Below, one piece after another: positions 7,865-7,940 of a DNA stretch of 26,113 nt. Origin of the DNA: Escherichia coli (lineage in GTDB: Bacteria > Pseudomonadota > Gammaproteobacteria > Enterobacterales > Enterobacteriaceae); the NCBI RefSeq assembly GCF_003334255.1, contig NZ_QOWU01000063.1. The stretch is one strand, 5' to 3'. The notes beneath the pieces were generated by a model. That model was not told the DNA's origin. It ran no database searches and saw nothing but the letters and a program-made list of their open reading frames with translations. Position 1 is the stretch's first letter. Every line of letters begins with the position of its first letter. The translations under genes and the position numbers were made by a program.

Positions 7865-7868
7865 TACT

Positions 7869-7895
7869 TTTTGCCGCCTGAAAGCGGCGGCAAAA
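7869..7895 (+). other. Stable hairpin between ycgM and ycgN with no U-tract (possible partial terminator or RNA-stability element)
   Basis: TTTTGCCGCC-TGAAAGC-GGCGGCAAAA is a 10-bp perfect stem starting 5 nt after the ycgM stop. It is followed by CTTGCATCG, not a T-run. Confidence 0.5.
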
Positions 7896-7940
7896 CTTGC
7901 ATCGCTGTGCCAGACTGGTTATAAGGTGCGTTTTAACGTA

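Follow-up and report, generated by a model that had tools for sequence, protein, structure and literature searches.

A conserved U-less stem-loop between ycgM and ycgN of Escherichia coli and the ycgN promoter that adjoins it

The classic case of a REP sequence that stabilises the upstream part of an operon mRNA is that of malE-malF. Intercistronic REP elements and stem-loops lie between co-transcribed genes, allow read-through and act as barriers to 3' exonucleases, and the upstream segment gets a stable end. Protective 3' stem-loops without a U-tract were reportedly hypothesised by Peters et al. in 2012. Dar and Sorek (2018) described E. coli mRNAs that have no intrinsic terminator and carry precise 3' ends just past stable stem-loops lacking a U-tract, and these ends are made by PNPase and RNase II, which trim longer precursors (PMC6061677).

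Here we describe a hairpin between the E. coli genes ycgM and ycgN. All positions refer to the window, which is the whole stretch of 26,113 nucleotides that was analysed. Similar to the stem-loops of Dar and Sorek, the ycgM hairpin is a stable G+C-rich stem just after a stop codon, has no U-rich tail, and is followed within a few nucleotides by an RNA 3' end, which is present in the TRS data and absent from the part of the Term-seq lists of Adams et al. (2021) that was covered. Its energy and size are within the range of intrinsic terminators. In the class of Dar and Sorek, however, true termination is Rho-dependent and takes place in a long untranslated tail, whereas ycgM is followed within 60 nt by a translated gene with its own promoter. 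The hairpin shares with intercistronic REP elements the position between co-transcribed genes and the tolerance of read-through, but it is a simple 27-nt hairpin of a different sequence and is present in a single copy per genome. It also resembles a canonical intrinsic terminator in having a G+C-rich stem of 8-10 bp and a short loop directly after the stop codon. Unlike such a terminator, it has no U-rich tract (about five or more U in 8 nt) in any of 77 sequences, it has a T-run on its 5' side and an A-run on its 3' side, and published data show read-through rather than an efficient stop. Finally, there are known pairs of a stem-loop and an internal promoter, in which the end of the upstream transcript and the downstream promoter share one short intergenic region and two transcript classes result. 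The ycgM-ycgN junction differs from these pairs in its extreme packing, with the -35 hexamer 2 nt past the stem, and this packing is conserved across the bacterial family. The type of element is therefore well described, and this instance is already contained in published supplementary tables, which list the start site of ycgN as well as the 3' end and its fold. It appears not to have been discussed in the literature, and a full-text literature search found no paper on the regulation of E. coli ycgM or ycgN.

Structure and conservation of the hairpin

The ORF list and RefSeq annotation place ycgL, ycgM and ycgN in this part of the window, together with the convergent hlyE. The ycgM coding sequence (7205-7864, + strand; RefSeq annotation of K-12 and of strain 720632) encodes an FAH-family protein whose function was recently assigned as oxaloacetate tautomerase, while YcgN is an uncharacterised Cys-cluster protein with putative metal or Fe-S binding. 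Positions 7800-7990 are identical to K-12 MG1655 base for base, and a window position plus 1,220,874 gives the K-12 position. Therefore, published K-12 transcript maps can be transferred directly onto the window.

An inverted-repeat search and RNA folding placed the hairpin at 7869-7895 on the + strand. The 5' arm (7869-7878, TTTTGCCGCC) and the 3' arm (7886-7895, GGCGGCAAAA) are 10 nt each and pair at all 10 positions with six G-C and four A-U pairs, and the loop is the 7-nt TGAAAGC (7879-7885). The hairpin alone has a dG of about -16 kcal/mol. It begins at the fifth nucleotide after the ycgM stop codon (TAA, 7862-7864), leaving 4 nt between, and the ATG annotated for ycgN in K-12 (7941) is 45 nt 3' of the stem. 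A sequence-only reading had described a perfect 10-bp stem about 5 nt past the ycgM stop, with ycgN about 45 nt further on and no downstream U-run, and each of these points was borne out. On the + strand, the 8 nt past the stem are CTTGCATC with three T, so the tail of the hairpin (CUUGCAUC) holds three U. The - strand continues with AAAAAGTA, and there is no T-run after the hairpin on either strand. A consensus terminator scan of both strands found no terminator at the hairpin, and the order of T-run, stem and A-run is the opposite of a terminator layout. A terminator on either strand was thus rejected; AAAAAGUAUUAC comes after the hairpin on the - strand, where there is no convergent gene.

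The 26-kb window has three distinct perfect inverted repeats with arms of at least 10 bp and a loop of 3-8 nt, while 0.24 was expected from dinucleotide shuffles. The 91-nt context on the + strand folds little better than its shuffles (z = -1.25), and therefore the signal is a local hairpin and not a larger fold. The other two perfect repeats are at 3354-3379 and 19169-19197. The former is located at the 3' end of minE, where TRS reports a 3' end (K-12 1224221).

To compare the junction across Enterobacteriaceae, we used 80 loci from a YcgN scan of species-representative genomes. ycgM is directly upstream of ycgN in 79 of them, and the remaining locus is on a 962-bp contig that is too short to show the neighbour. 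Hairpins were called by an explicit stem search in 77 distinct junction sequences, and 70 sequences formed the alignment. In 76 of the 77 junctions, 7-11 bp (median 9) form a hairpin without interruption, and the remaining one has a bulged version. The median dG is -15.5 kcal/mol, and the hairpin begins 3-24 nt past the ycgM stop (median 7). The loops occur in 51 different versions of 3-7 nt. By contrast with these variable loops, the inner 8 bp (7871-7878/7886-7893, TTGCCGCC/GGCGGCAA) form a nearly invariant core: the six G-C or C-G pairs are standard pairs in all 70 aligned sequences, and the U-A pair next to the G-C core is kept in 68. Only Escherichia and a few other lineages have the outer two A-U pairs.

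The few changes in the core follow RNA pairing on one strand. All one-sided changes are C to U in the 5' arm, which leave a U.G wobble in the + strand RNA, while on the - strand the same changes would produce an A.C mismatch. Compensatory changes from G-C to A-U were found in Salmonella enterica arizonae and at one other locus (L062). Formal covariation is weak, as the stem sequence shows almost no variation: two pairs have double changes, and 45 of 500 shuffles gave as many. In this position, two Siccibacter species instead carry GGCCCGC/GCGGGCC, a hairpin whose sequence is unrelated. In 5422 E. coli genomes, a 39-nt hairpin query matched a median of one place each, in every case at ycgM, and the hairpin is thus not a REP or other dispersed palindromic repeat. 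It is also not a known RNA family, as an Rfam search at E <= 10 gave only chance matches elsewhere. A dimeric operator palindrome would need a fixed half-site spacing, but the arms are 3-7 nt apart among species. The variable arm spacing, the single copy, the absence of an Rfam match and the wobbles compatible with the + strand only together indicate a selected + strand RNA hairpin, and its retention is not due to chance. No Enterobacteriaceae sequence has a U-tract after the stem (1-4 U in the next 8 nt; 76-77 sequences), and the element has therefore never had a terminator tail within this family.

In the 3' arm, the A-run has been retained better than the T residues that pair with it. Almost all sequences have A in alignment columns 44 and 45, and the partners of these columns, which make up the two outer pairs, are T in 30 of 70 and 28 of 54 sequences, respectively. 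The 10-bp stem of E. coli is therefore really an 8-bp core with lineage-specific A-U extensions. The conserved A-run probably also serves the ycgN promoter, and it may be the promoter, and not the pairing, that keeps this part of the 3' arm conserved.

The ycgN promoter and mapped transcript ends

Beyond the hairpin, the remaining intergenic sequence is conserved to an even greater degree than the hairpin itself (AAAACTTGCATC, followed by GCCAGACTGGTTATAAGGTGC(A/G)). This block reads as the sigma-70 promoter of ycgN. The -35 hexamer TTGCAT (7897-7902, + strand) is within the block ACTTGCATC, which is invariant in 70 sequences. It begins 2 nt past the stem, and the conserved AAAAC just upstream of it overlaps the 3' arm. 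The -10 hexamer TATAAG (7920-7925), within TTATAAG that is invariant in the same 70 sequences, is 17 nt from the -35 hexamer. TTGCAT matches the consensus at three of six positions, including TTG, and TATAAG at five of six; our promoter scan missed TATAAG since it demands a final T in the -10 element. The tight packing of stem and -35 hexamer is conserved family-wide. A ycgN transcription start was mapped at 7930 (K-12 1228804) by SMRT-Cappable-seq (operon table, PMC6131387 Supplementary Data 2), a single dataset from a method that captures 5'-triphosphate ends on full-length reads (PMC6131387). This position is a conserved purine (A or G in 64 of 70 sequences) and is 5 nt past the -10 hexamer, a gap slightly less than usual. 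The promoter thus has recognisable hexamers, a spacing within the usual 16-18 nt, and a mapped 5'-triphosphate end. Since the start site is downstream of the hairpin, a role of the hairpin as a 5' UTR stabiliser for ycgN was rejected. A sigma-E-type promoter was also considered, as AAACTT resembles a -35 element of that type, but no matching -10 element was found at the right distance.

The segment at 7906-7930 (GCCAGACTGGT) is conserved far beyond the needs of a promoter spacer. It contains the near-invariant palindrome CCAGACTGG (7910-7918), which may be an operator. In this spacer, CCAGA-N7-TAAGG fits the core of the IscR type-2 consensus, CC..A.......TR.GG (PMC4055776). The Y position and most of the A/T-rich flanking W positions do not match, however, and an IscR type-2 site is no more than a lead.

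The ycgN promoter has been replaced in some lineages. Cedecea-like and Siccibacter lineages (L051, L062, L071, L037 and L046) have longer ycgM-ycgN spacers that lack the TTGCAT/TATAAG promoter, and the junction is about 150-250 nt long in L051, L062 and L071. Siccibacter has TGnTAGAAT 12 nt past its own hairpin, and the Cedecea-like group has TATACT behind a small CCTT-CTT-AAGG hairpin. The hairpin after ycgM is kept in every one of these longer-spacer lineages.

In LB-grown K-12, RNAtag-seq (TRS; PMC10687069 Supplementary Data 3 and 4) gives an RNA 3' terminus for ycgM with a peak at K-12 1228768-1228778 (7894-7904, + strand). Bar et al. (2023) listed its dominant 3' end at 1228773, which is position 7899, in the class 'Primary' (PMC10687069). 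This end is 4 nt past the full stem and 8 nt past the G-C core. The fold predicted for it in the TRS table is this same hairpin (-16.2), with a maximum U-run of 2 (PMC10687069). With R = 0.70 and adjusted p values of 0.45, 6e-4 and 9e-5, the peak is modest and is significant in two of three libraries (PMC10687069). In the covered part of the Term-seq lists of Adams et al. (2021), there is no 3' end at the hairpin and one inside ycgM (1228243). The low expression of these genes makes this absence weak negative evidence.

SMRT-Cappable-seq reported three relevant transcripts (PMC6131387). A ycgL-ycgM-ycgN transcript starts at 1227685 (6811) and crosses the hairpin, a ycgN-only transcript starts at 1228804 (7930), and a ycgJ-ycgL-ycgM transcript does not fully cover ycgN. 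In Supplementary Data 1 of that study, a termination site was called for none of these transcripts (PMC6131387). Since the ycgL-ycgM-ycgN reads are capped and full-length, RNA polymerase does cross the hairpin. Moreover, the read-start density in the ycgN coding sequence is about 65-85% of that in ycgM (TRS Supplementary Data 4, PMC10687069), and thus there is no strong step down, though the promoter of ycgN also contributes to this density. These data agree with the sequence-only reading that the hairpin is not a full stop. The same reading had suggested that the hairpin sets the ratio between ycgM and ycgN expression. It cannot do so alone, because ycgN has its own conserved promoter; this promoter, which had been overlooked, matters at least as much as the hairpin for the ratio. 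With read-through and this promoter together, ycgN is served by two sources.

Possible functions of the hairpin

The hairpin had been read from its sequence as a partial terminator, an attenuator or a 3' stability element. The 3' end at 7899 without a U-tract fits a stability element or a weak terminator, while the attenuator part did not hold. Neither a conserved alternative pairing nor a leader is present, Rfam gave no match, and in the consensus fold nothing competes for pairing with the arms. The hairpin follows a full-length enzyme gene instead of a leader, which also argues against an attenuator or riboswitch.

We consider it rather likely that the U-less stem-loop forms and protects the 3' end of ycgM mRNA as a barrier to exonucleases, with read-through into ycgN. 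This explanation is rated as the most likely because the hairpin has all sequence features of the class of Dar and Sorek and a mapped 3' end as well. The inverted repeat would be transcribed at the end of the ycgM-containing mRNAs (ycgL-ycgM and ycgJ-ycgL-ycgM) and would fold into a G+C-rich stem-loop. Because there is no U-tract, RNA polymerase would be released inefficiently and a substantial share of transcription would proceed into ycgN. Transcripts with an end or a cleavage site farther downstream would then be trimmed to the base of the stem by enzymes with 3'-5' exonuclease activity, for example PNPase and RNase II, leaving a protected 3' end at about 7899, and a minor fraction may terminate directly at the hairpin. 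Since a translated gene with its own promoter follows within 60 nt, there is little room for Rho, and the longer precursors are more likely to be full ycgLMN transcripts or their cleavage products. The former would probably end at the terminator between ycgN and hlyE. The main job of the hairpin would thus be to provide a stable 3' end for the ycgM message, and we infer that trimming by exonucleases is the origin of the 3' end and that stabilisation of ycgM mRNA is the function under selection.

The hairpin could also be a weak, non-canonical intrinsic terminator that releases a fraction of the polymerases despite its poor U-tract (AAAACUUG) and thereby directly sets the flow from ycgM to ycgN. 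The distance of the 3' end from the stem (4 nt) and from the G-C core (8 nt) suits release driven by a hairpin, the ycgJ-ycgL-ycgM transcript does not fully cover ycgN, and Dar and Sorek noted that stems of this type may act as intrinsic terminators of low efficiency (PMC6061677). However, the next 8 nt hold only 1-4 U in every species, the terminator scan was negative, and SMRT-Cappable-seq gives no termination site for these transcripts. Read-through is documented, and the read density drops little into ycgN. In addition, with the stop codon 4 nt from the stem, a terminating ribosome would be expected to cover the 5' arm. We therefore regard direct termination as unlikely to be the main role, and the hairpin is at most a weak terminator. 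An action at the DNA level was also considered, in which the palindrome or its A-run binds a regulator or the alpha subunit of RNA polymerase (UP-like) as part of the ycgN promoter. The 3' arm with AAAAC abuts the -35 hexamer and is kept better than the T-run that pairs with it, and the block down to the ycgN start site is nearly invariant. The distance between the arms varies from 3 to 7 nt, though, which a dimeric DNA-binding protein would not tolerate, and the 5' arm is conserved as well as the 3' arm although it is remote from the promoter. The wobble changes are compatible with the + strand only, and Siccibacter keeps a hairpin with an unrelated sequence. The A-run may well serve the promoter, yet this leaves the hairpin unexplained, and a DNA element is a very unlikely explanation for it.

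In the RNAalifold prediction, a helix UGCAUC/GGUGCR (7898-7903 with 7925-7930) encloses a CCAG-A-CUGG mini-hairpin in the read-through RNA. The hairpin might thus be part of a larger cis-regulatory RNA, formed with this helix and the CCAGACUGG mini-hairpin, that controls pausing, processing or ycgN translation. The second helix is predicted in all 70 sequences and the intergenic block is unusually conserved. But the helix shows no compensatory change, and its bases are already accounted for by the promoter hexamers (-35 and -10) and the mapped start site. Rfam has no match, folding of the 91-nt region is not markedly better than that of its shuffles, and the ribosome-binding region of ycgN is outside the predicted structure. 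Such an RNA is the least probable of the explanations considered here. Another, very improbable, explanation is that the stem and the adjoining promoter form a single conserved functional unit, in which the nascent hairpin, perhaps together with the predicted helix 7898-7903/7925-7930, slows or remodels polymerases coming from ycgM at the ycgN promoter and the spacer is perhaps under Fe-S control. A pause-like pattern (G-10, Y-1, G+1) is found near 7908, with G7899, T7908 and G7909. If such a unit existed, it could protect the ycgN promoter against occlusion or, as the ycgM stop is 4 nt from the stem, tie the output of ycgN to translation of ycgM. The CCAGACTGG...TAAGG spacer, with its partial similarity to an IscR type-2 core, could then also place the Cys-cluster protein YcgN under Fe-S-dependent control.

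With a protective stem-loop as the preferred explanation, the transcript map of the region has a ycgL-ycgM(-ycgN) transcript, a ycgM end capped by the hairpin, and an internal ycgN promoter. ycgM and ycgN are partly co-transcribed and partly independent, which may help studies of their regulation. Across the family, the junction offers a clean case of purifying selection on a 3' stem-loop without a U-tract. It is otherwise an ordinary element with little relevance beyond annotation. The packing of the stem against the -35 hexamer and the conserved spacer CCAGACTGG...TAAGG are mildly unusual, and they serve as leads only.

Start codons and neighbouring transcript ends

ycgN is annotated in K-12 from the ATG at 7941 (153 aa), while PGAP starts it at the ATG at 7956 (7956-8402, + strand, 148 aa). 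The ATG at 7956 is invariant across the aligned Enterobacteriaceae, whereas Citrobacter and many other genera have ATA or another triplet in place of that at 7941. Moreover, 7941 is merely 10 nt past the mapped start site of ycgN, and a conserved GGA (7946-7948) upstream of 7956 is likely to be the ribosome-binding site. The true start codon is thus probably 7956. Similarly, the K-12 start of ycgL (ATG 6807, 108 aa) is upstream of the start site of the ycgL-ycgM-ycgN transcript at 6811, and the PGAP start at 6840 (97 aa) is consistent with a transcript that begins at 6811. Two K-12 start codons are therefore open to correction, that of ycgN to 7956 and that of ycgL to 6840.

Other transcript ends were found nearby. 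The 3' end of ycgN was mapped at 1229415, which is position 8541 (PMC10687069). A long hairpin (GAGAGTTACC...GGTAACTCTC) at 8495-8541 is located between the convergent ycgN and hlyE and is flanked by a T-run and, on the opposite side, by an A-run; it is likely to be a bidirectional terminator. Within the ycgM coding sequence, the Term-seq end at 1228243 (7369) was scored as not Rho-dependent in the covered part of those lists, and TRS has an 'Internal' peak at 1228125 (7251). These ends may be decay intermediates or premature ends. Another U-less hairpin (GACGGGG-AGAGT-CCCCGTC, 6169-6191) follows ycgJ, between the convergent ycgJ and pliG. It has a + strand 3' end in both Term-seq (1227065) and TRS (1227064), and belongs to the same class of elements as the ycgM hairpin.
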